49,298 bases of DNA from Escherichia phage BrunoManser: sequence record MZ501053; one strand, written 5' to 3'. Below the pieces are notes generated by a model, which was not told where the DNA came from, made no database searches, and saw nothing but the letters and a program-made list of their open reading frames with translations. This document shows positions 30,335 through 45,124 of this stretch, piece after piece. The translations under genes and the position numbers were made by a program. Position 1 is the stretch's first letter; the number at the start of each line of letters is the position of its first letter.

Positions 30335-30337
30335 AAA

Positions 30338-31051
30338 ATGAAAGACGAAAACGATAAAGTAACAATCGACACATTCGGTACAGGTTGCGAATTTGCCCGC
30401 GCCGGGTTAGTAACTGGCGGTCATTATCAGTATGTAAGGACGCGTCCCGAAGATATCGTATCCGGTCGCCGATACAAGGGAACCAATACGCCGGACGCGG
30501 TTCGCGATTTGTGGTCTACTCCGCGCGAAGTAGTGGCATATATGGAAGGCCGCTTCGGGAAATATGATCTTGACGCCGCCGCCAGTGAAGAAAATAAAGT
30601 GTGCGACAAGTTCTATTCGCAGGAAACAAACTGTTTAAAACGCTGGTGGGGTAAAAATAAACATGTTTGGCTTAACCCGCCATACAGCCGCCCGGATGTG
30701 TTCGTTAAGAAAGCGATCGAGCAAATGGAACACGGAAACCAGATTGATATGCTGTTACCTGCTGATAACTCGACGGCATGGTTTACCGAAGCGCGACGTA
30801 ACGCGGCGGAAATCATCTGGATCGAGGGCGATTTGTGGGAAGATATCGACGGAACGGAATTCGCCAGATCTGGACGATTGGCCTTCATTTCAGGAGCTAC
30901 CGGGAAGCAAGTAGACGGCAACAACAAAGGTTCTGTTCTGTTCGTCATTCGCCAGCTTAAAGAAGGCGAAACGCAACAAACGCATTACGTAAGCATCGCG
31001 GACATTTGTCCTTCAGTGAAAAATAAACGTGCAAAAGCGAGGAATATTTAA
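30338..31051 (+). CDS. dam: DNA N6-adenine methyltransferase (Dam-like)
   Basis: 237 aa; catalytic motif IV NPPY (WLNPPYSRPD); phage Dam-like size. Confidence 0.7.
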   Translation: MKDENDKVTIDTFGTGCEFARAGLVTGGHYQYVRTRPEDIVSGRRYKGTNTPDAVRDLWSTPREVVAYMEGRFGKYDLDAAASEENKVCDKFYSQETNCLKRWWGKNKHVWLNPPYSRPDVFVKKAIEQMEHGNQIDMLLPADNSTAWFTEARRNAAEIIWIEGDLWEDIDGTEFARSGRLAFISGATGKQVDGNNKGSVLFVIRQLKEGETQQTHYVSIADICPSVKNKRAKARNI

Positions 31052-31278
31052 TGAAACTTTTACTTATCGGCGAGAATAAATTATTCCTCCTTTATCGTGC
31101 AATGGTGTGCGCGGCGATTGAAAGCGCAATGGTCGAAGAAATGGTAGACGGCGAATTGTGGGAGTTTACAGAATGCCTTGATATGTCATTCGAAGAAATC
31201 AAGAATCAGCCGTTCGAGTTGTGGGATTCAATCATACAAAACGACTTGCGCGAATTCTTAGGAATTAGATCGCACTAA
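31051..31278 (+). CDS. hypothetical protein
   Basis: 75 aa, coupled to methyltransferase stop; palindrome module overlaps its stop. Confidence 0.4.
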   Translation: MKLLLIGENKLFLLYRAMVCAAIESAMVEEMVDGELWEFTECLDMSFEEIKNQPFELWDSIIQNDLREFLGIRSH

Positions 31279-31284
31279 TTGCTA
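31270..31284. promoter_or_regulatory. palindrome-like tCGCA-N5-TGCTA + hairpin module
   Basis: CGCACTAATTGCTAAAC, hairpin CCCGGCGAAAGTCGGGTATTATTATTTCATCAAAACGAAA. Confidence 0.45.
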
Positions 31285-31343
31285 AACGTACCCGGCGAAA
31301 GTCGGGTATTATTATTTCATCAAAACGAAACTGAGAAAAGCAA

Positions 31344-31538
31344 ATGGCTCGCATCAATAAACACTTTTTCGAAATGGCTCAATCTTCAGCGCGCGAAGGC
31401 GTAGAGTTAACCACGTATCACGCTGGTAACTTCGATTGGGATATCGCTATGAAGTTTCTTAAAATGGCATATTACCGCGCAAGCGTCGAAGAGGTGGAAA
31501 GCTTCATTAAGGACGTAGAGAAGGTGATTAATGATTAA
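31344..31538 (+). CDS. hypothetical protein
   Basis: 64-aa ORF downstream of palindrome/hairpin module. Confidence 0.4.
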   Translation: MARINKHFFEMAQSSAREGVELTTYHAGNFDWDIAMKFLKMAYYRASVEEVESFIKDVEKVIND

Positions 31539-31803
31539 AGAATCTGGAAAGCGGGCAGTGTGGGAACACGCAAAAGAAACAGGGCTTGCGGACGGGATCG
31601 CACTAATTGCTAAGTATTTCGACATTAAGGACGTTAGTATTATTGGCAACGGGAAGATAACATATATTGAAGAGCTTCCCCGCAAATGTCACCGCGTCCC
31701 GGCTGTTCCCGGTCTGGAATATTACCGGGAAGAAGGCAAGCGCATAATGAAGGAATTTAAGGAGAGTCAGAAGAATGGAAAGACTACCCGGCTTAAACGG
31801 TAA
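31531..31803 (+). CDS. hypothetical protein
   Basis: 90 aa, overlapping neighbours. Confidence 0.4.
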   Translation: MIKESGKRAVWEHAKETGLADGIALIAKYFDIKDVSIIGNGKITYIEELPRKCHRVPAVPGLEYYREEGKRIMKEFKESQKNGKTTRLKR

Positions 31804-32020
31804 TTTTGACGACTACCCGGAAACTGAGTTCGAAGGCGAAGTGTTTAAAATAATCCCTTTCGCTGATTGGTTGCCTTCCGACTTCGAAACGGTTCTATGT
31901 AGTCGCGGCGGAGGATATATAAAAATGTGGTATAGCCCACTAAAAAACATGATGATTTTCGACAGCGGCGGCGAAGGTATGAAGCCTTCAGACCTTGTAA
32001 ACTGGCTTAGGAAGAAGTAG
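31775..32020 (+). CDS. hypothetical protein
   Basis: 81 aa, overlapping previous ORF. Confidence 0.35.
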   Translation: MERLPGLNGNFDDYPETEFEGEVFKIIPFADWLPSDFETVLCSRGGGYIKMWYSPLKNMMIFDSGGEGMKPSDLVNWLRKK

Positions 32021-32045
32021 CATGTTCGGCTTTTTTGGTGTAGTA

Positions 32046-32074
32046 TTCACACCCGTAATAGCTTTCACTATCAT
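32046..32074 (+). promoter_or_regulatory. candidate sigma70 promoter (TTCACA-N17-TATCAT)
   Basis: Upstream of the HTH-metallophosphoesterase gene. Confidence 0.3.
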
Positions 32075-32105
32075 TTATCTAATTGTAATGTAAGGATGTA
32101 AAAAT

Positions 32106-33239
32106 ATGTCAACTGCAAAAATCACAACCGAACAGCTTATCGAAGAGCGTAGCAACGGCCTAACCCTTCGCGAGATCGCAGAAAAATACGGTATGCACAT
32201 TCGCACCGTCGAAGCGCGTCACGCTAAGTTAGCGAAAGAAGGTCACTTCCACGGCAACGCTCACGTAGCGGCCAACGTCCCGACAGGCTTCGCGGTCAAA
32301 GGTACTTCGACAATGATTCGTGCGGACGGTTCCGAAGTCGTTCGTTGGGTTAAGACCGATCAGGACAAAGAAAAGATTTACGAACTAATGAAGGCGGCAC
32401 AAATCGCATTTTGTGAAGACCTTCCGCGAGCGACGCCAAGCGACGCAACGCCGAACACTGAAGAAAGCTTGCTTGCGCTTTACCCGGTATTCGATCTTCA
32501 TATCGGCGCGTTAGCCCATAAACACGAATCCGGCGAAAACTATTCTACTGATATCGCCGAAGAAGTGTTGAACAAGTATTTCGACTACGCCGTAACCGTA
32601 GCGCCTGAAGCCAAAAAAGCCGTACTGTTAATCGGTGGTGACTTCCTGCATAGTGACGGTCTGGACGCAGTTACCCCGGCAAGCGGTCACGTTCTGGATC
32701 AAGATTCACGCTATGCAAAACTGGTTTACGTGGCAATCCGGGCAACGCGCCGCGCGATCTCAAGAATGCTTGAGAAACACGAAGAAGTCGAAGTGCAAAT
32801 CATTGAAGGCAACCACGATCAAGCCGGAATGATTTGGCTACGCGCTGCAATGGCGGCATATTACGACGACGAACCGCGCGTCTATGTCGATGTTAGCCCG
32901 ATGATTCTACATAAAACGAAGTGGGGTAAAACGCTTTTGGGTTACACTCACGGTCACACGATGAAGAAAGCCGACACGCGTTTAGCTGCTATGGCGGCGG
33001 ACTTCCGCGAAGAGTTCGGCGACAGCAAATACGTATACACGCATAGCGGACATTGGCATCATCAAACAATCACCGAGCACACGCTAGGGATTGACGAAGT
33101 ACACGGACAGCTAGGCGCTAAAGACGCTTACGCGGCGCGGGGCGGCTGGAGAGCATACCGACAAGCGGCGGTTATCGTGTACGACAAAAAATTCGGCGAA
33201 GTTGGGCGCTTCATCTACCGCCCGGAAATGACCGAATAA
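32106..33239 (+). CDS. metallophosphoesterase (calcineurin/Mre11-like motif set) with N-terminal HTH region
   Basis: 377 aa; motifs DLHIG, GGDFLHSDG, GNHD, THGH, GHWHH in canonical order; N-terminal ~45 aa LTLREIAEKYGMHIRTVEARHAKLAKEG looks helix-turn-helix. Confidence 0.5.
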   Translation: MSTAKITTEQLIEERSNGLTLREIAEKYGMHIRTVEARHAKLAKEGHFHGNAHVAANVPTGFAVKGTSTMIRADGSEVVRWVKTDQDKEKIYELMKAAQIAFCEDLPRATPSDATPNTEESLLALYPVFDLHIGALAHKHESGENYSTDIAEEVLNKYFDYAVTVAPEAKKAVLLIGGDFLHSDGLDAVTPASGHVLDQDSRYAKLVYVAIRATRRAISRMLEKHEEVEVQIIEGNHDQAGMIWLRAAMAAYYDDEPRVYVDVSPMILHKTKWGKTLLGYTHGHTMKKADTRLAAMAADFREEFGDSKYVYTHSGHWHHQTITEHTLGIDEVHGQLGAKDAYAARGGWRAYRQAAVIVYDKKFGEVGRFIYRPEMTE

Positions 33240-33240
33240 A

Positions 33241-33255
33241 TAGCACGAATAGCTA
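33241..33255. promoter_or_regulatory. palindrome TAGCA-N5-AGCTA + hairpin module
   Basis: TAGCACGAATAGCTAAAG, hairpin GGGGTAACGAGTTATAGTTACCCC, leader CATCAAAACAAAGGAG. Confidence 0.55.
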
Positions 33256-33313
33256 AAGACAAACGCGGGGTAACGAGTTATAGTTACCCCATCAAAACAA
33301 AGGAGATAGACAA

Positions 33314-34446: not shown

Positions 34447-34847
34447 AAGATTTTGCATTAGCAACATTTTGCGCATTGTGCATTACATTACCCGCGATCG
34501 TGCTGTCGGGCTGTTCAATGAATCCGCTGGATTCCCTGATTGGTAATAAGCCAGATGTGACGGCGCAAGTCGGCGCGGAGAACGTAAAACAGACTGTCGG
34601 CCTGACAGCTAAACAGGATCAGAAGAACGAAACGTCGGTCAAAGATTCCAACGTCGGCAAGGTGGATTCCTCCACTAAGAAGACGGAAAGCATTAAGGCC
34701 GGAACCATTCAGGCGGAACGCATCGAAGTAAACAACGGTAGCGAAGGCGCTGTATTCTGGTTCGGTGGCGGCATGATTGCGGCGTGGTTGATTTGTGCGG
34801 GGCTGTTGTGGTCAATCAGTTACAGGAAACAAAATAAGGAGGCTTAA
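34443..34847 (+). CDS. unimolecular spanin (lipoprotein N-terminus + C-terminal TMD)
   Basis: 134 aa; lipobox LSGC at N-terminus and C-terminal TM segment ([15 protein letters not shown]), as in T1-type u-spanins; overlaps endolysin stop. Confidence 0.55.
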
Positions 34848-34860
34848 AGCCTCCTTTTTT
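34836..34860. terminator. bidirectional terminator after spanin (+) and ORF 34859-35107 (-)
   Basis: AAGGAGGC-TTAA-AGCCTCC followed by TTTTTT; stem overlaps spanin stop codon. Confidence 0.65.
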
Positions 34861-35107
34861 ATGCGAGAATGTCGATACTTTCCGCGACCTTCACTTCATC
34901 AGGGATTCCGCATTCTACGGCGTGGATTGTGACAGCCTTAGTTACAATGATCGGATCGGCTGCAAAGTCATACCCAATTACGTTTAACGTTGCACAGATC
35001 GCGCGGTTACGTGCTGCAAACGGTACGCAATCCGGGATTGTAACAGTTTCGACTTTGCGTTCGTCGGTGCGGGCATTTAATTTGAAGTTAACGCGGTAAG
35101 TAGCCAT
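34859..35107 (-). CDS. hypothetical protein
   Basis: 82 aa; preceded on - strand by palindrome/hairpin module and RBS AAGGAG; ends at bidirectional terminator. Confidence 0.45.
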   Translation of the reverse strand: MATYRVNFKLNARTDERKVETVTIPDCVPFAARNRAICATLNVIGYDFAADPIIVTKAVTIHAVECGIPDEVKVAESIDILA

Positions 35108-35165
35108 TTTGCTTTCTCCTTTTGTTTCGATGAAATGATAATACCCGGAATTAACCGGGTAGTTT

Positions 35166-35180
35166 TAACAAAAAGTGCTA
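35166..35180. promoter_or_regulatory. palindrome module (leftward orientation)
   Basis: Minus-strand TAGCACTTTTTGTTAAAAC + CCCGGTTAATTCCGGGTATTATC hairpin + leader CATCGAAACAAAAGGAG before ORF 34859-35107. Confidence 0.55.
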
Positions 35181-35381
35181 TTGGTATCGCGTCACGCTCA
35201 ATATGCAAACGCCGTCGCCGTCCGCCAGATTGTGACACGTTTCACCGGACGCCCGCATCGAAGACAACAGAAGAGACATTAGCGCCGTGTTGAATTCATC
35301 TTCTGAAAGCTGGTGCGTTGCGCAAAATTCGACGCTCCGATCTATCAACATTTCGACCTTTCCCGAACAAATCTTCATCAC
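35178..35381 (-). CDS. hypothetical protein (start uncertain)
   Basis: 67-aa ORF overlapping 3' end of 35296-35700 by 86 bp in another frame; its stop TAG lies in a palindrome module; real start may be a later ATG. Confidence 0.25.
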   Translation of the reverse strand: MMKICSGKVEMLIDRSVEFCATHQLSEDEFNTALMSLLLSSMRASGETCHNLADGDGVCILSVTRYQ

Positions 35382-35700
35382 TCAATTCCTCAATGTGCAT
35401 CATTTCATAATTGTATCTGTTCGCGTAACCTTCCACGCAAACGAGCTTCATCATTAGCGGGCGCTTGATACGCCCACGGCAACTATAAACGCCTCCAGTA
35501 CAATCTAAATAACCTTCAGTCATGCACCGGGCGCAAAACTCCTTCGACATAATGCTAACGAATTCGCGATGCGGTAACCCAGCCGCCGCCGCCATTCTTT
35601 CGGATTCCTTATGCTGGAATATGAATTTCGCGATGTGCTGTCGCGTGTACCGATCGTAACCTTCGCAGAATTTAAACAGTTCAAGTAACAGCATCATCAT
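35296..35700 (-). CDS. hypothetical Cys-rich protein
   Basis: 134 aa; several Cys (CEGY, CARCMTEGYLDCTGGVYSC); follows the 521-aa gene. Confidence 0.4.
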   Translation of the reverse strand: MMMLLLELFKFCEGYDRYTRQHIAKFIFQHKESERMAAAAGLPHREFVSIMSKEFCARCMTEGYLDCTGGVYSCRGRIKRPLMMKLVCVEGYANRYNYEMMHIEELSDEDLFGKGRNVDRSERRILRNAPAFRR

Positions 35701-35706
35701 TTCACC

Positions 35707-37272
35707 TTATAGGAAACATGGATTCACATAAACAACTTCGTCAACTACGCAAACATGGTTCATTCGCTCTAACTCAATCAACAGCGTCTCGATACGTTCG
35801 CCGACCTTCTGTTGTCCGTTGAACGGGGTAATGTTGCGACACTTCGAAATCAGGCTATGGATCTGTACACGACCTTTTGAACGACGCGCCATTCCCGTAA
35901 TCACTTCCGACAGCTTGCGGGATTCGGCTTCGTCACCTGCAAAGCCCGCCGCGTTCGCCGACGACAGATACGTTTTCGACAGTTCGTTGAATATCATGAT
36001 CGCTTCCTGCATTGTGTCTAAATCGATCTCACGATTTGCCCGGTTCGGGTTTTCACCTGTCCAGTTACGGATCGCGTGAAGCACTGAAGCGATACGGATA
36101 ACGTGTTTATCGAACTTGCCTAAATGACCGCGTAACATAGAGTGCGAATAGCGCCCGCCCGCCGCGAAGCTGGATTCCATTTCCTGACGCGCCAAGTTAA
36201 GCGCCCGGTTCGCGTTCCGGTTTAGCGTGAATACGACTTTCTCTTCCTTCATGATATTGTGAATCAAGCGATAATATTTGCTAACTAACGATTGCTCTAC
36301 GGGTTTATATACCGCGTCGCCGTTTTCGTCGCAAAGTGTACGAGTACCTAACAACGGCTCTTCACGAACGAGCAAGAAACGTTCCGATACCCCGATCCCG
36401 CGTTGCCCGGCATCCATGATCCCACGTATCGTTTCATCCTGAGCAATAACGCAGATCGCGCCAACGGGACGAATTGACAGGTTGTTATCCTGATTGGAAC
36501 GCGCTACTTCCATGTGGTTCATATCCCACGCTTTAAGGATTAGTTCGCTGTTCGCCTTCTTATCAGTTCCGCCATACGTCAAGCCAAGAAGCGTATTTAT
36601 CGCCGTTGCTTCGTCCGATATTACTGAGAAGTTACCTTGCGCCGCAGCGACCTTCGCCAAGCCTTCAGGAGTCGGATCGGATACGGCAAACACGACGTTA
36701 GCCATTTTCTTGATCTTCTCTTCTAACTTCTCTTTTTCCTCGTAAAGCGCTACGGCTGAATTGCCTTTTACGTCATTCTTGATCTCGCGTTCGACGTTGC
36801 GAAGTTGCCCCATCAGTCGAGAACGTTCGGCTTTACGCGCTTCGTTAATGCGGTCAATTTCGGATCGCATCGGGTTAATCGCGGCGGAGTTAATCGCGGA
36901 TTTACCTGTTGACGGCGGTTGACTGATTACCATGTAAAGCGCGGTCGGTTGTTCTTCGCCGTGATACTCAACCCAAAAGCGCCCCAGCATAGCGGCGGAC
37001 ATACAGCCGATAAAATGCGCGTATGCAGATGAAACAGGGAATTGGACGGATTCAGCCTTTGCTTTCGCGTATTCGTAAACGAGGTTGTCGCCAGCAATAG
37101 AGATAAGCGGGAATTGATCGTTTCCGCTGTTAATCTGTTCCGGCTGGCTCCAGAACGATCGAGAATCAGGATAGCCATTTTCACGAATAGCTAACGCGAC
37201 AGGGTTAATCCCGTTCGTATTGGCGATTTCAATGATTTGACTAACTGAAAGTTTAGGTTTACCGAAAAGCAT
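35707..37272 (-). CDS. putative P-loop NTPase (DUF3987-like, replication/host-takeover associated)
   Basis: 521 aa; deviant Walker A (ISQPPSTGKSAI) and acidic hhhhDE-like segment (ICVIAQDE); largest gene of leftward operon; family recalled from memory only. Confidence 0.45.
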   Translation of the reverse strand: MLFGKPKLSVSQIIEIANTNGINPVALAIRENGYPDSRSFWSQPEQINSGNDQFPLISIAGDNLVYEYAKAKAESVQFPVSSAYAHFIGCMSAAMLGRFWVEYHGEEQPTALYMVISQPPSTGKSAINSAAINPMRSEIDRINEARKAERSRLMGQLRNVEREIKNDVKGNSAVALYEEKEKLEEKIKKMANVVFAVSDPTPEGLAKVAAAQGNFSVISDEATAINTLLGLTYGGTDKKANSELILKAWDMNHMEVARSNQDNNLSIRPVGAICVIAQDETIRGIMDAGQRGIGVSERFLLVREEPLLGTRTLCDENGDAVYKPVEQSLVSKYYRLIHNIMKEEKVVFTLNRNANRALNLARQEMESSFAAGGRYSHSMLRGHLGKFDKHVIRIASVLHAIRNWTGENPNRANREIDLDTMQEAIMIFNELSKTYLSSANAAGFAGDEAESRKLSEVITGMARRSKGRVQIHSLISKCRNITPFNGQQKVGERIETLLIELERMNHVCVVDEVVYVNPCFL

Positions 37273-37328
37273 TCTTAGATCTCCTTATTGAGCGTGGTAG
37301 ATTATACCCCGCCCATACTACACGCTTT

Positions 37329-37343
37329 TAGCAATAAGTGCTA
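37329..37343. promoter_or_regulatory. palindrome module (leftward orientation)
   Basis: Minus-strand TAGCACTTATTGCTAAAAG + ...GGGGTATAATC... + RBS AAGGAG before 521-aa gene. Confidence 0.55.
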
Positions 37344-37347
37344 TTTG

Positions 37348-37764
37348 TTACAGGTACTTCGCTTCGAAAGTGGTTCCGTCCGCAATGCTGAAGCCGACTT
37401 CTTCCCTAAAGAGCGTCCATCGACAGCCGTCCTTATCGAAGATGTAACCCGCAACGCCACCTAACGCGCGTCCGCTTTCCACTTGATAACGCTTGCCGAC
37501 AGTGAACGATTTCTTAATCGGGTTTTTGTGGTCAAGCCCGGTACACTTCAGCGTTTTAGTTTTCAGCTCGATGAAAGTCGCGTTCAACGGTTCGTCTAAC
37601 GAATTTTCGCCGTGTACCGTCATTTTATCCAACTTATGCCAGCCTTTCGGCGCGAACTTAACGAACATGCTTCCTTCGTTGTCGATGCGTCCTTTATAAA
37701 GATTGTTAGCAGTGAAGAAGAGTTTCATTGTTGATGAAGTGCATTTCAGGTTAATAGATTTCAT
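37348..37764 (-). CDS. hypothetical protein
   Basis: 138-aa ORF in leftward operon; palindrome module 4 nt after its stop. Confidence 0.45.
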   Translation of the reverse strand: MKSINLKCTSSTMKLFFTANNLYKGRIDNEGSMFVKFAPKGWHKLDKMTVHGENSLDEPLNATFIELKTKTLKCTGLDHKNPIKKSFTVGKRYQVESGRALGGVAGYIFDKDGCRWTLFREEVGFSIADGTTFEAKYL

Positions 37765-37846
37765 CGCATCATTCCTTCTGATTGGTTATCTTGAATAAGG
37801 CCACTTTATCAAATGACCTTACGGCAATATTAACAAATCGTGCCAT

Positions 37847-38059
37847 TTACCACGGAATATAATCTTCGCCTGGAATTGAATTATCTTCCGACGTCATCAC
37901 GAAATCCGGATCTAATTCGCTTTCGTCATCCATGTTCATATTGCCTAACGCTTCGTCTAGCGACACTTCTTTATATGCCACCTTCAAGCAAAATTCGTGA
38001 TTCAATCCAGAGTCAAGCGCGGTAAAATAACGAGTCCAAAAGTTATCTTGTTTCATCAA
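37847..38059 (-). CDS. hypothetical protein
   Basis: 70-aa acidic ORF in leftward operon. Confidence 0.4.
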   Translation of the reverse strand: MMKQDNFWTRYFTALDSGLNHEFCLKVAYKEVSLDEALGNMNMDDESELDPDFVMTSEDNSIPGEDYIPW

Positions 38060-38284
38060 TTAACTCCACGAATTAATATAAATTGAGTTAGTTTCAAGCA
38101 TGGCGCGAACGTCCGCCATTGTTGCGTTTACTAAGCGAGCGCCCGGAATCGTGCCGACTACGTTATTGCCGCTACGGCTTTTGTTAATGGTGATTTGATG
38201 ATATCCAGCCGCGCGATCCAGTTTTACAATTACCTTCCCTTTTGCCGCGTAGTGCTTAAGAATATTTTCAATCTTGATACTCAT
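38060..38284 (-). CDS. hypothetical protein
   Basis: 74-aa ORF; palindrome/hairpin module and RBS AAGGAG upstream. Confidence 0.4.
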   Translation of the reverse strand: MSIKIENILKHYAAKGKVIVKLDRAAGYHQITINKSRSGNNVVGTIPGARLVNATMADVRAMLETNSIYINSWS

Positions 38285-38341
38285 TGTTATTTCTCCTTTG
38301 TTTCGATGGGGTAACTATATCAAGATACCACGTTGTTGTTT

Positions 38342-38356
38342 TAGCAATTTGTGCTA
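38342..38356. promoter_or_regulatory. palindrome module (leftward orientation)
   Basis: Minus-strand TAGCACAAATTGCTAAAAC + ...GATATAGTTACCCC + CATCGAAACAAAGGAG. Confidence 0.55.
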
Positions 38357-38509
38357 TTTGACACGATGCCCGGTAAATGGATAATGCGCTACGTCTGCGA
38401 CACTATATCGATCTGAAACAATCCAGCTACCATCTTCCATAAGGCGGCGAACATGTTGCCCCACGATCGAATACCATGCTTTCGTTTCGTGATTATAATA
38501 TCGAATCAT
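38354..38509 (-). CDS. hypothetical small protein (51 aa)
   Basis: Manual ORF; ATGA overlap with upstream stop; its TAG stop is the first half-site of palindrome 38342-38356. Confidence 0.3.
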   Translation of the reverse strand: MIRYYNHETKAWYSIVGQHVRRLMEDGSWIVSDRYSVADVAHYPFTGHRVK

Positions 38510-38736
38510 TCTTCCACCACGTCAAAAGATGCCACACCCAAAACAACATACCCGGACGGATACGCGCTAATCGCTTGCCAGTTACCGCCGCCGCGCTTTA
38601 CCCTGTCGCCAATGACGAATAGTTCGTCACGGACGCCTGAAATTGATAGCGCATCATATACGCCGCCTTTTACGAATGGCTGTTTCTGTTTGCCGTCGCC
38701 AATCTGTATCGCTTTACTGCATTTCAGTTTAATCAT
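38506..38736 (-). CDS. hypothetical protein
   Basis: 76-aa ORF coupled to neighbours. Confidence 0.4.
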   Translation of the reverse strand: MIKLKCSKAIQIGDGKQKQPFVKGGVYDALSISGVRDELFVIGDRVKRGGGNWQAISAYPSGYVVLGVASFDVVEE

Positions 38737-39059
38737 TGCTTATTATCCCACGTTGCGTACTGAACGGATAAAACCACTTTCCCGGTTTTCTTCATATCTT
38801 CGTAACTGTTATGCTGCAACGGGCTGAAGCGGATTACTTCTTCGCCTGTCGGTTCGTCGATAAGGATTCGTGCGCTTTCGGTGTAGACGTATTTCACACG
38901 ATCTTCGAAATCAGCACCAACTTTTCGTAATGACGCCGCCCTAGCTCGCTCCAATACGTGCGGCTGTAAATCTTCGCCAGCTTTCAATACAGCGTCGGAA
39001 ATGCTTCCGCCCCAACCAATCAGGCGCTTGACGTTGATTTCGTACAATTTGCCGATCAT
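38733..39059 (-). CDS. hypothetical protein
   Basis: 108-aa ORF coupled to neighbours. Confidence 0.4.
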   Translation of the reverse strand: MIGKLYEINVKRLIGWGGSISDAVLKAGEDLQPHVLERARAASLRKVGADFEDRVKYVYTESARILIDEPTGEEVIRFSPLQHNSYEDMKKTGKVVLSVQYATWDNKQ

Positions 39060-39280
39060 AATTTAATCTCCTGATATTCGATGAAGTCTTGAACGTACAT
39101 ACATTCGCGCGGGCTTTCCTGTCCTTTGAGGACTTCGCACCCATTGTTAAACAGCAAGTAACAGCCGCAAAGTGAACCGGGGAAATGCTGTTCGACAATA
39201 GCGATCCCGTTACAACGTCCGCCGCCGAATCTATGCGGGAAGTCATACGCGCGACAACGGCAAGTTACTTGCTTTCTCAT
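39056..39280 (-). CDS. hypothetical Cys-rich protein
   Basis: 74 aa with 8 Cys (CRCRAYD...CNG...CGCYLL...C...C), candidate metal-binding. Confidence 0.4.
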   Translation of the reverse strand: MRKQVTCRCRAYDFPHRFGGGRCNGIAIVEQHFPGSLCGCYLLFNNGCEVLKGQESPRECMYVQDFIEYQEIKL

Positions 39281-39469
39281 TTAGTCGGATTCCATAACGA
39301 TTACGGGTTCCATAATTTCAAGCTGGATCTTGAAATCTTCCATAAACATTTTGCGTTTCAACAGGTCTTCGTAAGTGTCGGTCGCGAGGCTGGCGCTATC
39401 ACCTGCATAGCAAACCGACTCCTGTTTCGTGGCGCGACTCTTTGCAACGACGCGGTATTGTTTCTTCAT
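39281..39469 (-). CDS. hypothetical protein
   Basis: 62-aa ORF. Confidence 0.35.
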   Translation of the reverse strand: MKKQYRVVAKSRATKQESVCYAGDSASLATDTYEDLLKRKMFMEDFKIQLEIMEPVIVMESD

Positions 39470-39738
39470 TCGATAATCTCCGTAGTAACGCGGACTTTGC
39501 GTTCTTTCACCACAAGGCGAACAATCGTTAAATTTCTGTCGTCATAGCGATAGTGATCGCCTACCTTTTCCATTAACGACAGGAAGTTCGGATCTGTCAA
39601 GAACTCTACGACGTCTTCGTCGCGCGGTACGTAAACGGGTTGTTTGTCGCCCAAGCATTGCACCGCGATAGTGTCCGGGAGAAGAGTCATAACGGCGATG
39701 TATTCCACTGATTCGGTAACGGTCTTGTTCTGTTCCAT
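39466..39738 (-). CDS. hypothetical protein
   Basis: 90-aa ORF; module and RBS upstream. Confidence 0.4.
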   Translation of the reverse strand: MEQNKTVTESVEYIAVMTLLPDTIAVQCLGDKQPVYVPRDEDVVEFLTDPNFLSLMEKVGDHYRYDDRNLTIVRLVVKERKVRVTTEIIE

Positions 39739-39800
39739 TTTTGTGATCCTCTTGTCTCGTTTCGATGGGGTAATGATGCCACACCACCCCGATTGTGTTT

Positions 39801-39815
39801 TAACAAAAAGTGCTA
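39801..39815. promoter_or_regulatory. palindrome module (leftward orientation)
   Basis: Minus-strand TAGCACTTTTTGTTAAAAC + GGGGTGGTGTGGCATCATTACCCC + CATCGAAACGAGACAAGAGGA. Confidence 0.5.
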
Positions 39816-39816
39816 T

Positions 39817-40005
39817 TTAGTACCCGCAAAACGTTTTACGCCATTGTTTCAGCTTTTCCCAAATCAGGAAATCGCGATTGCTAAACGGATCGCCCCAAAA
39901 GCGAAACAGGTTGTCAGTATAGAAATCGACCTTGCGTTCTACGGTATCGGAAAGTGTCTTGCACTGCCCTTTATTGGTGAATCGCTTTAAGATCTTCACT
40001 GTCAT
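39817..40005 (-). CDS. hypothetical protein
   Basis: 62-aa basic ORF; ATGA-coupled to upstream small ORF. Confidence 0.4.
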   Translation of the reverse strand: MTVKILKRFTNKGQCKTLSDTVERKVDFYTDNLFRFWGDPFSNRDFLIWEKLKQWRKTFCGY

Positions 40006-40145
40006 TTCTCCATCTGTTCTAAAAGTTTTTCTATCACCTCGATTCGGTTGTAGTGGTGATTAAACTCCCGGACGTCTACTTCGTACCCCATCGCTTCGAT
40101 CGCGTTAAGGTGAATGCCGATTGCGCTCCTCAGTCTGCGAATCAT
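40002..40145 (-). CDS. hypothetical small protein (47 aa)
   Basis: Manual ORF bridging 40142-40462 and 39817-40005 with ATGA overlaps at both ends. Confidence 0.3.
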   Translation of the reverse strand: MIRRLRSAIGIHLNAIEAMGYEVDVREFNHHYNRIEVIEKLLEQMEK

Positions 40146-40432
40146 AAGTCCTTCCACAAGTGACGGTTAGCGCCGATGTAATCCAGCATTTCGCGAACGT
40201 GCTTTTCATCCTTCAGTGTGCCGGGTAACTCTCCTTTCAGCTCTTGCGGCAACCACACGTTACCGTTATAGGTGAAAGAACCGTTCTCATTTGCCTGATA
40301 GGTGAACATCCATTCGCAATCGTTATTCAGATCCCACACTGCCAGAAAGTCACCTTCGCCAACGTTCTCGATCGTAACGTCTAATCCGCGCTTGCGTGCA
40401 AAGTTGATTGTCGTTTTGCTGATAGTTGTCAT
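40142..40432 (-). CDS. hypothetical protein (first gene of leftward operon)
   Basis: Start set to internal ATG (MTTISKTT...) after RBS AAGGAG and palindrome/hairpin module. Confidence 0.45.
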   Translation of the reverse strand: MTTISKTTINFARKRGLDVTIENVGEGDFLAVWDLNNDCEWMFTYQANENGSFTYNGNVWLPQELKGELPGTLKDEKHVREMLDYIGANRHLWKDL

Positions 40433-40489
40433 TGCTGTATCTCCTTCGTTTCGATGAAGCAACTATACCCGAACCACCCCGCCGATGTG

Positions 40490-40504
40490 TTGCAAAAAGT
40501 GCTA
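40490..40504. promoter_or_regulatory. palindrome module (leftward orientation), first gene of leftward operon
   Basis: Minus-strand TAGCACTTTTTGCAA + CGGGTATAGTTGCTTCATCGAAACGAAGGAG before ATG at 40432. Confidence 0.5.
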
Positions 40505-40585
40505 TTCCTGATCCGATACGATTATTCCTCGCTTTTGGAATAACTGGAATAATGAGTGATTACTCATGATTGCAAATGACAAGTT

Positions 40586-41145: not shown

Positions 41146-41736
41146 ATGACTAAACTAGCATCATCAAATGAACCGAACATCGCCGCAATGCTTCGCCACA
41201 TCGTCACGCTGAAGATTCAGGCTGGCGAACGGGAATTCAGCTTCACCGAATTGCAAATGCTGATTGAAGCCGCCCGGTTGCAGTATGAGGAACACGGCGT
41301 CACCCGCACTGAAGATGAATTAGACGACGACGCGCGAGTCTTCCGGGATCAGTACAACGGCCTGTTGCGCCTGAAGATGAAATCGCCGTACATCGCGCCG
41401 ACTATCAAGCGCCACGTTGCGAAAGCTGGCTTTGATTGTGCGATCTCACTTAGCCGGGATGAAGACGACGAAATCTTAGTGTCTGTCACGCTGTCGGACG
41501 AACCGATCGAGAAGCCAGCCCGCACACGTAAGGCGAAAGCGGCTCCGGTTGTCCAGGGTGATTCTGTTCAATCTGGTGAGCATATCGACACGGTTCGATT
41601 TAATGCGCTGGCGTTATGGGTTCCAGACTTCACGAAGTACGACGACGAAGAGTTATCGACGGCAAGGCAATTGCTTGAAGAGTTTCGGAATCACGTCGAA
41701 GCCCTGAGAGGTAAAAGCGAAGAAATCGCAGAATAG
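41146..41736 (+). CDS. hypothetical acidic protein (first gene of rightward early operon)
   Basis: 196 aa; RBS CAGGAG; sigma70-like promoter ~70 bp upstream. Confidence 0.5.
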   Translation: MTKLASSNEPNIAAMLRHIVTLKIQAGEREFSFTELQMLIEAARLQYEEHGVTRTEDELDDDARVFRDQYNGLLRLKMKSPYIAPTIKRHVAKAGFDCAISLSRDEDDEILVSVTLSDEPIEKPARTRKAKAAPVVQGDSVQSGEHIDTVRFNALALWVPDFTKYDDEELSTARQLLEEFRNHVEALRGKSEEIAE

Positions 41737-41748
41737 CACGAATTGCTA
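41734..41748. promoter_or_regulatory. palindrome TAGCA-CGAAT-TGCTA + hairpin module
   Basis: Starts at TAG stop of ORF 41146-41736; GCCCGGCGCGGAGTCGGGCATAATG then CATCGACAACGAAAACAG. Confidence 0.55.
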
Positions 41749-41810
41749 AAACGCCCGGCGCGGAGTCGGGCATAATGCACACATCGACAACGAAAACAGA
41801 ACCTATCAGG

Positions 41811-42107
41811 ATGAACAACTTTACCCGCACTGAATTTCAACACGCCTTCGCCGTCAACGTTCAAGCGATGCAGGGCTATCAAAAGCGCTTTGTCGCATTC
41901 GTTACCGCGCTTGGATTCAAACAAGCCTACGAAGGCACTGTAGCGGCACGTAACGCGCGTTTCATGGCATGGATTGGCGAACGTAAGGCCGACTTCGTGA
42001 AAGCGCATGATGAGCATGTACAGCGTGATTATTGCACTGGATATTACCGCATCCTAAGCGATGAAGCGTACACCGATTTTATTGTGTCGGGCGAATGGAT
42101 TAAATAG
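41811..42107 (+). CDS. hypothetical protein
   Basis: Start set to ATG after the conserved leader CATCGACAACGAAAACAG; tool ORF starts at 41775. Confidence 0.4.
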   Translation: MNNFTRTEFQHAFAVNVQAMQGYQKRFVAFVTALGFKQAYEGTVAARNARFMAWIGERKADFVKAHDEHVQRDYCTGYYRILSDEAYTDFIVSGEWIK

Positions 42108-42119
42108 CACTTTTTGCTA
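42105..42119. promoter_or_regulatory. palindrome TAGCA-CTTTT-TGCTA + hairpin module
   Basis: Starts at TAG stop; CCCGGTCAAACGGATCGGGTACTATAAC then CATCAACAACGAACGGAG. Confidence 0.55.
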
Positions 42120-42178
42120 AAACCCGGTCAAACGGATCGGGTACTATAACCACATCAACAACGAACGGAGATACACCA

Positions 42179-42661
42179 ATGAAAATCGAAATCTTTTGCA
42201 GTGGCGGATACAAGGGCTTCACGACTAACCATTTCCCGATTGTGGTCGATGCGGTGGAAACTGAGCGCAACGGCGGCTATCACGTCAAAGTGTCGGATCT
42301 GGAAGCGTTAGGCGTATACGACAGCGCAATCGGACAACAGCCTACTGAAGAAAATGGCGGCGGCATTGACTATAACCCGGAAACAGGCGTCTTGTTCTTC
42401 ATGCATCACGAAGTAGAGATCGCGAAGTTCGGCAAAGTTAAGGTGCGCATTCTTGAAAGTGGCGACTACTTTTTCAAGCCGGAGCACAATCGCACATTCC
42501 CGGTTATCGTCAACGGTTATCGCCACGAATACCAGTTGCACACCGTTTCGATCATGGAGGCCGACGCGCGGGCAATTGGGATGTATGTAAACGGGTTCAA
42601 GCCTTCATTCTGTCTTGGGGGTCACAAGTATTACGGCGCTGAAGCAGAAATAATCCGATAG
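42179..42661 (+). CDS. hypothetical protein
   Basis: 160 aa; module, leader and RBS upstream. Confidence 0.5.
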   Translation: MKIEIFCSGGYKGFTTNHFPIVVDAVETERNGGYHVKVSDLEALGVYDSAIGQQPTEENGGGIDYNPETGVLFFMHHEVEIAKFGKVKVRILESGDYFFKPEHNRTFPVIVNGYRHEYQLHTVSIMEADARAIGMYVNGFKPSFCLGGHKYYGAEAEIIR

Positions 42662-42673
42662 CACTTTTTGTTA
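42659..42673. promoter_or_regulatory. palindrome TAGCA-CTTTT-TGTTA + hairpin module
   Basis: Starts at TAG stop; GGGCTTGCGATATAGTAAGCCC then CATCAACAACGAAACAGGAG. Confidence 0.55.
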
Positions 42674-42734
42674 AAACACGCATTCGGGCTTGCGATATAG
42701 TAAGCCCATCAACAACGAAACAGGAGTTACAATC

Positions 42735-43250
42735 ATGTTAAAAGAACAAGATATTACTTACCCGATCACTTTTATCTGTAACGGCGTAGGCCGCTTCACA
42801 TTCACCAGCCGCTATCGTGGTGTGAAGGAAGGCGTGGGCGATTATAACGGTAGCGTTATGCATTTCGTCGAGCAGCACAACCTACGCAATCCGAGCAATA
42901 ACCCGACGAAGGATTATTTTTACTACAACAAAGGTTCGATTCGTTCGGGGCATCGTTCGCTGACTGGTTCAATGTACGCTGCCGGAATGATTATCCACAA
43001 CGCAGCCGCTAGCTCCAGCGCTGCCGCAACATCTGGCGGGATCTGCAAAGTCGAACAAATGCCGCTAGGCGCGAAGTTGACAGGAGTCCGCATGGAGTCG
43101 GGCGAATGGGTGGATATTCTCGTTAAGCCTGTCCGAATCGAAGTTGACGGCGAAACGGTTACTTTCCTGTTGCACCATAGCTTCAAAAGCAAAGGATTCG
43201 CCGGGGAAGTTAGCATGAAACGCGGCACTACGATCAAATGGTCTGAATAG
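42735..43250 (+). CDS. hypothetical protein
   Basis: Start set to ATG after leader CATCAACAACGAAACAGGAG. Confidence 0.5.
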   Translation: MLKEQDITYPITFICNGVGRFTFTSRYRGVKEGVGDYNGSVMHFVEQHNLRNPSNNPTKDYFYYNKGSIRSGHRSLTGSMYAAGMIIHNAAASSSAAATSGGICKVEQMPLGAKLTGVRMESGEWVDILVKPVRIEVDGETVTFLLHHSFKSKGFAGEVSMKRGTTIKWSE

Positions 43251-43262
43251 CACGAATTGCTA
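43248..43262. promoter_or_regulatory. palindrome TAGCA-CGAAT-TGCTA + hairpin module
   Basis: Starts at TAG stop; AAGCCCATTTGTTATAGTGGGCTT then RBS CAGGAG. Confidence 0.55.
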
Positions 43263-43330
43263 AACCTTCCGCAAGCCCATTTGTTATAGTGGGCTTATTG
43301 AAGCAAGGCAACCAATCAGGAGATAACGAA

Positions 43331-43408
43331 ATGACGCCAATCGAAAAGGTATGCTGTCCGAATCACGGCGGTAGTGGAGCAAAGTCAACCTGTCCATTTT
43401 GCAAATAA
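43331..43408 (+). CDS. Cys-rich micro-protein (25 aa)
   Basis: Manual ORF MTPIEKVCCPNHGGSGAKSTCPFCK with strong RBS (CAGGAG, 8 nt spacing) immediately after a module. Confidence 0.3.
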   Translation: MTPIEKVCCPNHGGSGAKSTCPFCK

Positions 43409-43418
43409 GGATCGAGAA

Positions 43419-43712
43419 ATGAAAATCACCTTAACCGAACAATACTTCAGCGATAGCAATCCGAATCGCTACATTATCACCGAAGGCATGACGACCGAAA
43501 CCGAACTAAAAGTTAATCAGACTATCGGTTCGCTCGTTCTGGTAAGCGCGAAGGAGTTAGACCGGTTCGCGAAGCCCGAACATCGCCACTTAGCCGACCC
43601 GCTTTTCGAAGGTGGCGAAATGCCGGACTATCCGTTCTTAGAGGGTGAGTATCGGAAGGCTAATCCGTTCTCGTTCTGGAATAAACTTAAATCCGGGAAG
43701 CTATTCAAATGA
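43419..43712 (+). CDS. hypothetical protein
   Basis: Start set to ATG (MKITLTEQ...); tool ORF begins at upstream GTG inside the micro-ORF. Confidence 0.45.
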   Translation: MKITLTEQYFSDSNPNRYIITEGMTTETELKVNQTIGSLVLVSAKELDRFAKPEHRHLADPLFEGGEMPDYPFLEGEYRKANPFSFWNKLKSGKLFK

Positions 43713-43948
43713 TAATCGTCAACACGGAAACGGGCGAGGTAATGGAAAATTGCGTCGTACTGGACGACAAGCCGAAACGGACGCCGAAGGCGAAGTCCGG
43801 GACTTACAAGAAAGTCGTTTGCAAGGCTCCCGGATGCGGCAATACGTACGAAGCGAAGGTGTCGGATCTTAATCGCGGCTGGGGTATGACGTGCTGCAAA
43901 TCATGCGCCGCCGTAGTTCGCGAACTGAAGAAAAAAGGACGGTGGTAA
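43709..43948 (+). CDS. hypothetical zinc-ribbon protein
   Basis: 79 aa; CKAPGCG...CCKSC four-Cys arrangement. Confidence 0.45.
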   Translation: MIIVNTETGEVMENCVVLDDKPKRTPKAKSGTYKKVVCKAPGCGNTYEAKVSDLNRGWGMTCCKSCAAVVRELKKKGRW

Positions 43949-43949
43949 C

Positions 43950-44162
43950 ATGAAACGATTATCACAATGGGACATTGCAGGAAAGGCTGACGCTGTCGAG
44001 GCGCTATTGTGCGACATTCACCCAAGCGACAGGATCGAGATTATCGCGAGGGCAATGTACAGCATGAACAAATACCACGACGGCGGCACTACCGAAATGC
44101 ACACTTGCGGCTGTCACGATTGGGATTTGACGATGGATTACCGGGAGGTTGGGAAACGATGA
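43950..44162 (+). CDS. hypothetical protein
   Basis: 70 aa, Cys/His-rich C-terminus (HTCGCHDWD). Confidence 0.4.
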   Translation: MKRLSQWDIAGKADAVEALLCDIHPSDRIEIIARAMYSMNKYHDGGTTEMHTCGCHDWDLTMDYREVGKR

Positions 44163-44299
44163 AACTTGAAAGGCGTAACACTGTCGGCGTGGATATGCCG
44201 AACACGAAGGATAAGCGCAAAATTCGCCGGGCGGCGCGTAACATTTCGAAAGAACTGTATTCGTGCGGACAACTTGAGAAGTTAGCCCGCAGATTCTGA
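44159..44299 (+). CDS. hypothetical small basic protein (46 aa)
   Basis: ATGA overlap with upstream stop; in frame with tool ORF 44009-44299, whose upstream part overlaps the preceding gene. Confidence 0.35.
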   Translation: MKLERRNTVGVDMPNTKDKRKIRRAARNISKELYSCGQLEKLARRF

Positions 44300-44300
44300 A

Positions 44301-44315
44301 TAGCACTAATTGCTA
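44301..44315. promoter_or_regulatory. palindrome TAGCA-CTAAT-TGCTA + hairpin module
   Basis: GGGGCTATGCCATAATAGCCC then ACACAAAACGAAAGGAG. Confidence 0.55.
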
Positions 44316-44374
44316 AAAAACATCATCGGGGCTATGCCATAATAGCCCTACACAAAACGAAAGGAGACACATCA

Positions 44375-44689
44375 ATGAAAACTAAATGCGTTTCGAACAA
44401 CACGAATAAGTTTACCATAGGCGGATTTTACGACGTTGTGCGCGTCGGCGAAAAAGACTTCATCGCAGCAGACGACAAAGGCCGGGCGCGTCCATGTATG
44501 CCGATTCACGGCGGCACGTTCTACCGCGTAACCCTCGCAGCCGATCGGGGCGCTGTATTCCAATTGCTGAAGCCGCAAAGCGAAATCGACGAAGCGAAAA
44601 AGCCGTGGTATCGCCGCAAAGAAAACATTGTCCCGGCAATCTTCACCGCCGTGATCCTGTTGGTCGCTACTGTCGCTTACGTGGCGTAA
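44375..44689 (+). CDS. hypothetical tail-anchored membrane protein
   Basis: 104 aa with C-terminal hydrophobic segment IVPAIFTAVILLVATVAYVA; module and RBS upstream. Confidence 0.45.
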   Translation: MKTKCVSNNTNKFTIGGFYDVVRVGEKDFIAADDKGRARPCMPIHGGTFYRVTLAADRGAVFQLLKPQSEIDEAKKPWYRRKENIVPAIFTAVILLVATVAYVA

Positions 44690-44741
44690 TTTTAACGGGG
44701 AATCAGTCGCTGATTGGTTCCCCATGACTTGAGGTTTTACG

Positions 44742-44864
44742 ATGATTGACGCCGGACACTGGAATGAACCGCCTGACTATACGCCTTTATGGTTCCTTTC
44801 CGGGATTTTGGGATTGCTGATTGTACTTAACGTTTTGAAGGGGGCTTTATGGATGGTGATGTGA
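44742..44864 (+). CDS. hypothetical membrane peptide (40 aa)
   Basis: Manual ORF after hairpin and RBS GAGG; hydrophobic core LWFLSGILGLLIVLNVL. Confidence 0.3.
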   Translation: MIDAGHWNEPPDYTPLWFLSGILGLLIVLNVLKGALWMVM

Positions 44865-45067
44865 ACTACGACGATTTAGCGGCGGACGCGGTAGCAGGTA
44901 TGCACCCAAATTCGAAGCGTAGCGCCCACTATCACGGTTTTAAGTATTCACCCTTGCGATTGCTTGACGCGATTTTGCGTCGTCCAGAAGTGATTACAGC
45001 GCGTTTAAGCTGGCATCGTTTTGATAATTTTTGCGTGACTATCGAAGTGAATAGCACTAAAAGCTAA
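44849..45067 (+). CDS. hypothetical protein
   Basis: 72-aa ORF; start overlaps preceding peptide ORF; stop overlaps a module. Confidence 0.35.
   Translation: MDGDVNYDDLAADAVAGMHPNSKRSAHYHGFKYSPLRLLDAILRRPEVITARLSWHRFDNFCVTIEVNSTKS
45052..45066. promoter_or_regulatory. palindrome-like TAGCA-CTAAA-AGCTA module
   Basis: Overlaps stop of ORF 44849-45067; downstream CTATAATG and leader CACCAACAAACGGAG. Confidence 0.45.
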
Positions 45068-45124
45068 AACCTATAATGTGAAATTCGCTATGATTCCCCT
45101 GCACCAACAAACGGAGATTCAACA

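Follow-up and report, generated by a model that had tools for sequence, protein, structure and literature searches.

Repeated modules in the leftward operon

The genome of Escherichia phage BrunoManser (sequence record MZ501053; 49,298 nucleotides (nt), analysed over its whole length and referred to below as the window) carries an operon that is transcribed leftward on the minus strand from 40.5 to 34.9 kb and is punctuated by six copies of an intergenic module. The module is built around a 20-bp box with the consensus AATAGCACnnnTTGYTAAAA and continues through a −10 hexamer and a leader to the Shine–Dalgarno sequence (SD) and ATG of the next gene. Judged from their anatomy, the modules are very probably promoters, and the box resembles in sequence and placement a marbox of enterobacterial hosts, that is, a site for the activators MarA, SoxS and Rob. 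The operon itself comprises 15–16 open reading frames (ORFs). A preliminary description of the region had counted about 15 small proteins plus one of 521 amino acids (aa), with a P-loop as the only signature, which is roughly right. The 521-aa protein (37272..35707) is DUF3987/helicase-like (Pfam DUF3987, 3e-44; PHROG 'DNA helicase') and carries a GKS Walker-A motif; no solved structure of a relative was found. The remaining proteins of the operon have no Pfam family or fall in PHROGs of unknown function.

All six modules lie on the minus strand and are described here in the order of transcription. Module 1 (40455..40506) has its box at 40487–40506 (AATAGCACTTTTTGCAACAC; 21.1 bits), with the weakest B site (the YTAAA half), the −10 TATAGT at 40462–40467 (9.9 bits), the inferred start at A 40455 within CATCGAAAC, the SD GAAGGAG and the ATG at 40432; no hairpin significant against shuffles was found in it. 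In module 2 (39766..39817), the box at 39798–39817 (35.7 bits) overlaps the stop codon of the upstream gene, and the hexamer CATCAT (39773–39778) follows TGg and is enclosed by a hairpin at 39767–39790 (−14.8 kcal/mol, z −2.6); the inferred start is 39766 and the next gene is 39738..39466. Module 3 (38307..38358) consists of the box at 38339–38358 (33.6 bits), whose TAG is the stop of the upstream ORF, the extended −10 TGaTATAGT with its hexamer at 38314–38319, and the inferred start at 38307 ahead of the gene 38284..38060; its hairpin is weak (z −0.5). Module 4 (37796..37847) combines the box 37828–37847 (AATGGCACGATTTGTTAATA; 20.3 bits) with the extended −10 TGaTAAAGT (hexamer 37803–37808), the inferred start 37796 (ATTCAAG), the next gene 37764..37348 and a hairpin at 37795–37822 that holds the −10 in its loop (−13.7 kcal/mol, z −5.0). 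Module 5 (37294..37345), with its box at 37326–37345 (34.8 bits), the −10 TATAAT at 37301–37306 (10.7 bits), a start near 37294 without the CATC leader and the SD AAGGAG, precedes the gene of the 521-aa protein. Module 6 (35131..35182) has its box at 35163–35182 (33.8 bits), whose TAG can close the upstream ORF, the −10 TATTAT at 35138–35143, the inferred start at 35131 and the next gene at 35107..34859; its hairpin (35142–35161; −12.3 kcal/mol, z −3.9) has a terminator-like score, with TATTAT plus catttc as a U-rich tail.

The preliminary description had placed five copies in the operon, each with a hairpin, a leader and a ribosome-binding site. All five are real, the coordinates given there lying 3 nt within the boxes, and the sixth, module 4, a more degenerate copy with TAAAGT at the right spacing, had been missed. 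An SD and an ATG do follow in 6/6 modules, the ATG 20–30 nt past the inferred start. The leader CATCGAAAC follows exactly in four of the five copies, while the 37326 copy has CACGCTCAATAAGGAG, and folding is significantly better than in shuffles for three of the six modules but not for the other three. The box also carries stop codons in two frames (TAG at positions 3–5, TAA at positions 16–18) and closes the upstream gene at several sites, for example at 38356–38354 and 35180–35178.

With the pattern AATAGCACTTTTTGYTAAAA and at most three mismatches, 15 copies are present in the window compared with 0 in 100 dinucleotide-preserving shuffles, and a family matrix built from many T1-like copies detects about 30 boxes compared with 0–3 in shuffles. 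Kropinski, Misra and colleagues have reported a 21-nt direct repeat, aaATAGCACnnnTTGnTAAAA, in 18 intergenic copies in phage TLS and also in T1, Rtp and Rogue1, with the copies about 76 nt ahead of start codons and oriented with transcription (PMC11447400). These authors found only three σ70-like intergenic promoters, considered stoperators, enhancer sites and UP elements for the repeat, and listed its function as an open question in 2024 (PMC11447400). The window copies are further members of this family, sharing the consensus, the intergenic position, the A/T/G subgroups of the central triplet and the spacing of about 76 nt (75 nt, for example, from the box start 35182 to the ATG 35107). Thus the module as such was already known. 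The published description, however, ends at the 21-mer, and its rule that all intergenic copies are co-oriented does not hold in the window or in T1, where several conserved copies oppose transcription.

The preliminary description had likewise held that orientation tracks transcription and had argued from this for function. Orientation does follow transcription in 6/6 leftward-operon modules and in most copies genome-wide, but 6744–6763(−), 10570–10589(−) and 25941–25960(+) oppose the local genes. The argument is incomplete, with several conserved copies anti-oriented or abutting late-gene start codons. Its conclusion, that the module is functional and not a product of chance, is nevertheless strongly supported: the module is kept in register across 406 unique T1-like copies, including those of T1, and also in Klebsiella phage KP36. 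The −10 element, the sixth operon copy, the published status of the repeat and the identity of the box with the host marbox had gone unrecognised.

Promoter anatomy across T1-like phages

For comparison across T1-like phages, the 406 unique copies were aligned without gaps on the box; they were drawn from a pattern scan of IMG/VR together with SRT8, T1, SA30RD and the window, and KP36 was scanned separately. With the box numbered 1–20, the alignment reveals an extended −10, TGnTAnnnT, at a fixed 19 nt past the box. The G of TGn occupies position 38 in 317/406 copies, and the hexamer at positions 40–45 reads T258 A329 T269 A234 A201 T324 (counts of 406). The best generic −10 lies exactly at this offset in 275/406 copies and one nt off in 38 more. 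Downstream, C is found at position 51 in 267/406 and A at position 52 in 296/406, followed by an A-rich leader, the SD and the ATG. There is no recognisable −35, the best match to TTGACA at a 16–18 bp spacer agreeing at only 2–3 of six positions in 369/406 copies. The same modules exist in T1 and in KP36, which belongs to a different genus.

The fixed extended −10, the CA, the lack of a −35 and the conserved box together argue that the module is a promoter, an assignment in which we place high confidence. It would be a compact activator-type σ70 promoter that restarts transcription within the operon. Counted from the inferred start, its layout would run from the box (−51 to −32) through the G of TGn (−14), TAnnnT (−12 to −7) and a C-rich discriminator to the start at the A of CATC(G/A)A (position 52), after which a leader of about 20–30 nt would carry the SD ahead of the next gene. 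The preliminary description had allowed for internal starts or cleavage sites at the modules; starts are the better-supported half of that proposal, with the extended −10 at a fixed distance from the box and CA plus the leader beyond it. The TTGCTA within the box was considered as an ordinary −35 and ruled out because it lies 22 nt from the hexamer. A scan for canonical σ70 promoters in 34800–41250 gives 9 matches compared with 10.8 expected, with no enrichment, which leaves little else as a driver of the operon, and detects none of the modules.

The box has the sequence and geometry of a class II marbox

The site of MarA has been given as 5′-GCAHWWWWTGYYAAA-3′ (Grainger laboratory, PMC6900184), and the box (GCAC-TTTT-TG-CT-AAA) fits it at 14–15 of 15 positions. 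The genome search string for MarA from the same laboratory, 5′-gcannwwntgnnaaa-3′ (PMC12052159), has 19 matches with zero mismatches in the window compared with 0.85 ± 0.85 expected, and all 19 are boxes. In 15 of these 19, nAnnnT lies exactly 35 nt past the G of GCA (background 6.7%, binomial P = 7e-15); nine have CA at the predicted −1/+1 (P = 3e-7), which is only suggestive of a start. Reciprocally, when a matrix built solely from 15 window boxes is run over 700 bp surrounding E. coli micF, its single top match is the micF marbox, in forward orientation; over 600 bp surrounding marR it is the marRAB marbox, in backward orientation. This matrix proved too strict where chromosomal marboxes are degenerate: at fumC, inaA and nfo nothing reached 5 bits, and these sites appeared only as low-scoring top matches or by eye, although nfo and inaA, identified in this way, have a spacing equal to that of the phage modules. 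In its pattern of variable and fixed positions the box follows the asymmetric consensus of 20 bp that Martin et al. reportedly gave in 1999, AYnGCACnnWnnRYYAAAYn, at 13 of the 14 positions that it specifies.

The placement of the box agrees with that of class II promoters of MarA, SoxS and Rob, in which a forward marbox lies over the −35, clustered near −41 within a centre range of −36 to −55 (PMC12052159, PMC8811837, PMC10268841), and in which a normal −10 is found with no recognisable −35 (PMC10268841). The phage box is forward, with GCAC distal and AAA proximal, and is centred at −40.5 from the inferred start, placing the A site GCAC at −47 to −44 and the B site YTAAA at −37 to −33. Native micF consists of its box, 19 nt and TAGAAT; the distance from the G of GCAC to the first base of TAGAAT is 35 nt, and the 5′ end is annotated 7 nt past the hexamer. 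In the cryo-electron microscopy structure of Rob and RNA polymerase on micF, Rob reads G−47 and A−45 of the A site and G−38, T−37 and the T:A pairs −35/−34 of the B site, and displaces σ region 4 from the −35 (PMC9178005). Counted from the inferred phage start, the columns that correspond to these contacts are the most conserved in the box: G5 406/406, A7 406/406, G14 403/406, Y15 399/406, A17 399/406 and A18 401/406.

The modules therefore share with the micF, nfo and inaA promoters the box consensus, its orientation, the centre at about −41, the 35-nt distance from G to hexamer, the lack of a −35 and the bases contacted by Rob. In contrast to the E. coli promoters, the phage has about 25 copies in a 49-kb virulent genome, all of them much nearer to consensus than the chromosomal sites. 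Its boxes add a conserved AATA upstream and TT at positions 12–13, and its modules are often fused to a hairpin and have a conserved CATCGAAAC-type initial transcribed sequence; binding of the host factor to the phage boxes is predicted only. No link of T1 or other Drexlerviridae phages to the marbox, Rob or MarA was found in the searchable literature, relative to which the promoter anatomy around the repeat and its identity with the class II host marbox are new.

A search of Pfam with 57 non-structural window proteins finds no AraC/HTH_18 family and only a weak Cro-type helix-turn-helix (HTH) in a regulator beside the helicase operon. Similarly, MarA and the N-terminal domain of Rob match the six-frame translation at no E-value below 0.6 (tblastn, phmmer), and a phage-encoded MarA-like protein was rejected on these grounds. 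The hosts of T1, KP36 and the window phage are enterobacteria with MarA/SoxS/Rob or RamA, and the binding motifs of these activators are nearly indistinguishable (PMC10268841). From the lack of an AraC-family protein in the phage and the spread of the modules across enterobacterial hosts, we infer a host activator of the MarA/SoxS/Rob family as the reader of the box, an identification that the sequence on balance favours. A monomeric two-HTH host activator would bind the box: Rob, which is constitutive and the obvious candidate, MarA, SoxS, or RamA in Klebsiella. It would stand in for the −35 contact and recruit RNA polymerase through σ region 4 and the C-terminal domain of the α subunit, or it would arrive already bound to polymerase. 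Such pre-recruitment has been described for these factors (PMC12052159) and would suit a genome studded with consensus sites. As a whole, we somewhat prefer to read the modules as internal promoters of the class II marbox type, which are often joined to a hairpin or leaky terminator and which host Rob, MarA or SoxS probably activates.

Hairpins between box and start

Between the end of the box and the start, a stretch of 33 nt, the 406 copies fold with a mean minimum free energy of −8.84 kcal/mol, compared with −6.59 for the reverse complement, −6.1 with the 3′ arms exchanged between modules and −4.45 with the spacer shuffled. The register that pairs positions 28–34 with 45–51, and so places the −10 in the loop, has runs of at least five pairs in 21% of copies, compared with 2–7% in most other registers and 12% in one neighbour. 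Across 140 sequences, 53.9% of the cells in this register are paired, compared with 47.5 ± 1.0 in shuffles (0/500) and 42–47% with slid partners. One sub-family contains the compensatory stems AAGCCC/GGGCTT, AAGGCC/GGCCTT, AAGGGC/GCCCTT, AACGTC/GGCGTT and GAGGGC/GTCCTC, with G-U pairs on the sense strand only, and the orthologues of module 4 in T1 (47118−) and KP36 (5769+) differ by compensatory changes in the stem. In a second class of hairpin the stem lies within the spacer and ends at the hexamer, with TATTAT and a T-rich discriminator as the U tract (35142–35161, 30027, 31268). Features of an intrinsic terminator, a G+C-rich stem plus a U tract, are present at 35142–35161 and, by eye, at 30027 and 31268, whereas most other module hairpins have no U tract. 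A hairpin as a universal part of the module was rejected, since it is absent from three of the six leftward-operon modules and from about half of the modules overall.

Transcripts that start at a module exclude the hairpin, which can therefore act only on read-through RNA. Where it precedes or encloses the −10, as in about half of the modules, it would probably attenuate read-through or shield the upstream message at its 3′ end. The module may thus serve as a joint between transcription units, with a leaky terminator or 3′-end protector fused to the next promoter. In the records of SA30RD (OL960579) and T1, some 'rho-independent terminators' annotated between early genes share the short intergenic gaps of the modules, and those that only WebGeSTer called probably represent hairpins of the modules and not true terminators.

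Alternative explanations

Several points weigh against the reading of the modules as class II marbox promoters with a host activator. MarA and SoxS are low in unstressed cells, yet T1-like phages grow well in ordinary broth, and a Keio screen of the T1-like phage LL5 reportedly did not report rob, although redundancy among the three factors could hide an effect. Box positions 1–4 and 12–13 are more conserved than the marbox consensus demands, the Y of Martin's consensus at position 19 is usually A in the phage boxes, and for five or six conserved boxes a role as class II promoter of the neighbouring gene is excluded. The start sites are deduced solely from the position of the −10, no transcriptome for T1 or other Drexlerviridae was found in the searchable literature, and the TGn of the extended −10 may allow activity without any activator. 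In addition, Rob is largely sequestered in unstressed cells or without inducers (PMC10268841, PMC9178005).

The core of the box, TAGCA-N5-TGCTA, is moreover a 5+5 inverted repeat whose half-sites are spaced by 10 bp, and a dimeric phage protein could read it. The modules would then be promoters whose box is recognised by a phage-encoded factor, either the Cro-like regulator (about 27027–27467, phrog_2856) or a small protein, acting as a MotA-like middle activator or as a repressor. Every T1-like phage examined has a conserved HTH regulator, no function is known for most early proteins, and the flanks of the box as well as positions 12–13 are conserved beyond the marbox consensus. The symmetry fails, however, where a dimer needs it, with C8 facing T12, the invariant G5 mirrored by C/T at position 15 (257/142) and flanks, AA and AAA, that are not mirror images; a symmetric operator for a dimer was rejected for these reasons. 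The degeneracy of the box instead tracks the asymmetric marbox position by position, the geometry is that of micF to the nucleotide, and the regulator has a single Cro-type HTH, for which the TTGTCTAA repeat is a better candidate operator. A phage factor is thus possible but doubtful. The middle promoters of T4, which use MotA and AsiA, resemble the modules in that a phage box replaces the −35 ahead of a normal −10, and the MotA box even has TGCT. The MotA box is centred near −30, 11–13 bp from the −10, whereas the box of the modules is centred at about −41 and ends 19 nt from the −10, and the activator proposed here is a host protein. No MotA or AsiA family is among the Pfam hits of the 57 non-structural proteins, and the modules do not have the makeup of MotA promoters.

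The remaining explanations dispense with an activator of this kind. Were the modules factor-independent extended −10 promoters, with the box as an UP-like or DNA-shape element or its likeness among copies as a result of module duplication, the TGn before the hexamer in most copies (G at −14, 317/406) and the A/T-rich ends of the box would be accounted for, and an UP element is among the ideas raised by the TLS authors. UP elements are A/T tracts, in contrast to the box invariants G, C, A, C and G; the modules have no such tract at −59 to −38, and an UP element was rejected on composition. Conservation of the box far above its flanks across genera, with a free spacer, points instead to a sequence-specific reader, and leaves factor independence decidedly unlikely. 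An RNA-level element on one long leftward transcript, acting in processing, termination or antitermination with the hexamer incidental, would fit the hairpins, which are real and, on the sense strand, accommodate G-U pairs (the −8.84 compared with −6.59 kcal/mol given above), one of them terminator-like. Terminators are annotated at the same intergenic positions in phage SA30RD, and the box itself can fold into a stem of 5 bp. A hairpin is present, however, in only about half of the modules, and its position is heterogeneous while that of the hexamer is fixed; most hairpins lack a U tract, and no Rfam family and no tRNA was found. The two roles are compatible, with the hairpin fitting as an add-on to the promoter, and a purely RNA-level function is accordingly rated very improbable. 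A σ54 promoter (TGGCAC-N5-TTGC), with a start about 12 nt past GC, is hardly conceivable, its resemblance to TAGCAC...TTGC being superficial. The near-invariant GG is replaced by AG, and the two elements are 2 bp closer together than in the σ54 consensus (9 nt from G to G, not 11). A conserved σ70 extended −10 lies downstream, no enhancer-binding ATPase is among the Pfam hits, and the look-alike was rejected on the wrong spacing and the absent GG.

Boxes at late genes and wider implications

The boxes that do not fit class II promoters of adjacent genes lie mostly among the late genes. Box 6744–6763(−) (T1 15087−) opposes the local genes; on one side of it is a 260-aa gene, on the other the terminator ahead of the major capsid gene. 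Box 10570–10589(−) (T1 18851−) also opposes the local genes; it lies downstream of a terminator and a promoter-like pair, TTGCTT-17-TAGAAT, and 20 nt short of the ATG at 10610. The 1140-aa tail gene has its ATG 3 nt past box 16552–16571(+) (T1 25020+), which lies downstream of a terminator and CTGTATAAT. Box 25941–25960(+) (T1 34901+) opposes the tail-fibre gene that it precedes (ATG near 25922) and is found just after TGcTAAAAT on the gene strand. A split box on the plus strand joins 49288–49298 to 1–9 (AATAGCACGAA continuing into ATGTTAAAC; T1 8361+), after a terminator at 49249–49270 and just before terS; the ATG at position 1 of the window is part of this box, and the real start of terS is the ATG at 25 behind the SD GAGGA. 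The sixth misfit is the orphan box CGTAGCACGAATTGCTAAAA at 40683–40702(−) (T1 counterpart 121−), which lies in the divergent non-coding region and has no −10 at module spacing.

All of these boxes are kept at orthologous T1 sites; no gene-opposed late-type box was found in the KP36 scan. Several late-type boxes lie directly downstream of a terminator with a TTGC loop and then of CTG+TAnnAT, that is, at or after a plausible late promoter, with the exception of 6744–6763, which is just upstream of its terminator. The same factor might use the late-type boxes as operators or roadblocks. The modules in general resemble the stoperators of mycobacteriophage L5 in being many short asymmetric sites in short intergenic gaps, mostly in one orientation. 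The L5 sites, in contrast, block elongation as targets of the repressor of a temperate phage, whereas the phage studied here is virulent and its sites are tied to a −10 at fixed spacing. Pfam gives no integrase family and, as the only repressor-like match, the weak Cro-type HTH, and the modules as a class do not correspond to L5 stoperators; stoperator-like action could concern only the few late-type boxes.

These observations can be joined in a broader model, which we regard as speculative and rather unlikely as a whole. The whole family Drexlerviridae would have no promoter code of its own for non-structural genes; some 25 class II marbox promoters of consensus type per genome would instead wire it into the host MarA/SoxS/Rob (RamA) regulon, which answers to antibiotics, oxidative stress and bile. 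Where such boxes lie at late-gene starts or just past them, they would serve as operators, and phage DNA, as it replicates, would titrate the activator and so help to set the switch from early to late expression. Whether infection succeeds would hinge on the cell's state of multidrug resistance. T1-like phages have no RNA polymerase or σ factor of their own and almost no canonical promoters. Reading the repeat as a class II marbox makes the open question about it (PMC11447400) testable with simple experiments and standard reagents. If true, it would tie a common family of virulent coliphages and Klebsiella phages to the regulators behind clinical multidrug resistance. It would then bear on phage therapy, for which mar or ram up-mutants might be better hosts, and on gut phage ecology, since bile and fatty acids activate Rob there, and it would supply very strong natural marboxes for the study of these activators.

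Modules elsewhere and genome setting

The window is the complete, circularly permuted genome of a T1-like siphophage (Drexlerviridae) whose nearest relatives are virulent members of this family. SRT8 is the nearest of them, with 94.6% identity in the leftward-operon region, compared with 93% for Citrobacter phage IME-JL8, and gene order agrees with SRT8 and T1. Structural genes run rightward over 1–21 kb and are followed by recombination, tail-fibre and primase genes, and by a rightward helicase-to-lysis operon at 27.5–34.8 kb. A bidirectional intrinsic terminator (34836..34856) closes both this convergent lysis operon and the leftward operon. Beyond the leftward operon, an AT-rich divergent non-coding region of 640 bp (40507–41146) separates it from a rightward small-gene operon at 41.1–49.2 kb, which continues into terS across the window ends.

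The small-gene operon contains ten co-oriented modules on the plus strand (41732..48043), with box position 1 at 41732, 42103, 42657, 43246, 44299, 45050, 45571, 46884, 47358 and 47992, the −10 hexamer at +39..+44 and the inferred start at +51. The spacing is irregular in the module 45571–45622(+), where a normal box is followed by its best hexamer, TATAGT, after 24 nt instead of 19; it looks like a 5-nt insertion into the spacer of the 'ccgcGAGGG...TCCTCATTGAA' sub-family. In the rightward replication/lysis operon (27486..33291), four plus-strand modules have box position 1 at 27486, 30027, 31268 and 33239; the −10 is one nt closer in the 27486 module and one nt further in the 33239 module, and the terminator-like hairpins of the 30027 and 31268 modules end at the −10. 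A further module (26993..27044, −) precedes the primase gene, with its box at 27025–27044 (19.9 bits), the −10 TAGAAT (7.1 bits) and a T1 counterpart at 35996−. A weaker one (22911..22962, +; box AACAGCACAAATAGCTAAAC) precedes an Erf-like gene and a weak one (21313..21364, −; box GATCGCACTTTTTGCCAACA) a Cor-like gene, each with TATAAT one nt closer than usual.

The Cro-like regulator is encoded by the ORF 27027–27533(−), which matches phrog_2856 'transcriptional regulator' and has a weak P22_Cro HTH at residues 74–100. Because the protein aligns only from residue 23 of the longest ORF, its true start is probably near 27467, which would leave the box 27486–27505 in the divergent gap, outside the gene. 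All five exact genome copies of TTGTCTAA are located in the 640-bp divergent region (40726, 40753 as the reverse complement, 41054, 41108 and 41118) and are probably the operator set of this regulator. The region also contains a canonical-looking rightward promoter, TTGTCT-17-TATTAT (41054–41082), whose −35 is overlapped by one TTGTCTAA copy. Between the first leftward module and the orphan box, at 40515–40629, a 17-mer occurs in three copies, GTTATGATTATTGCTTG, GTGATGATTATTGCTTG and the more divergent GATACGATTATTCCTCG.

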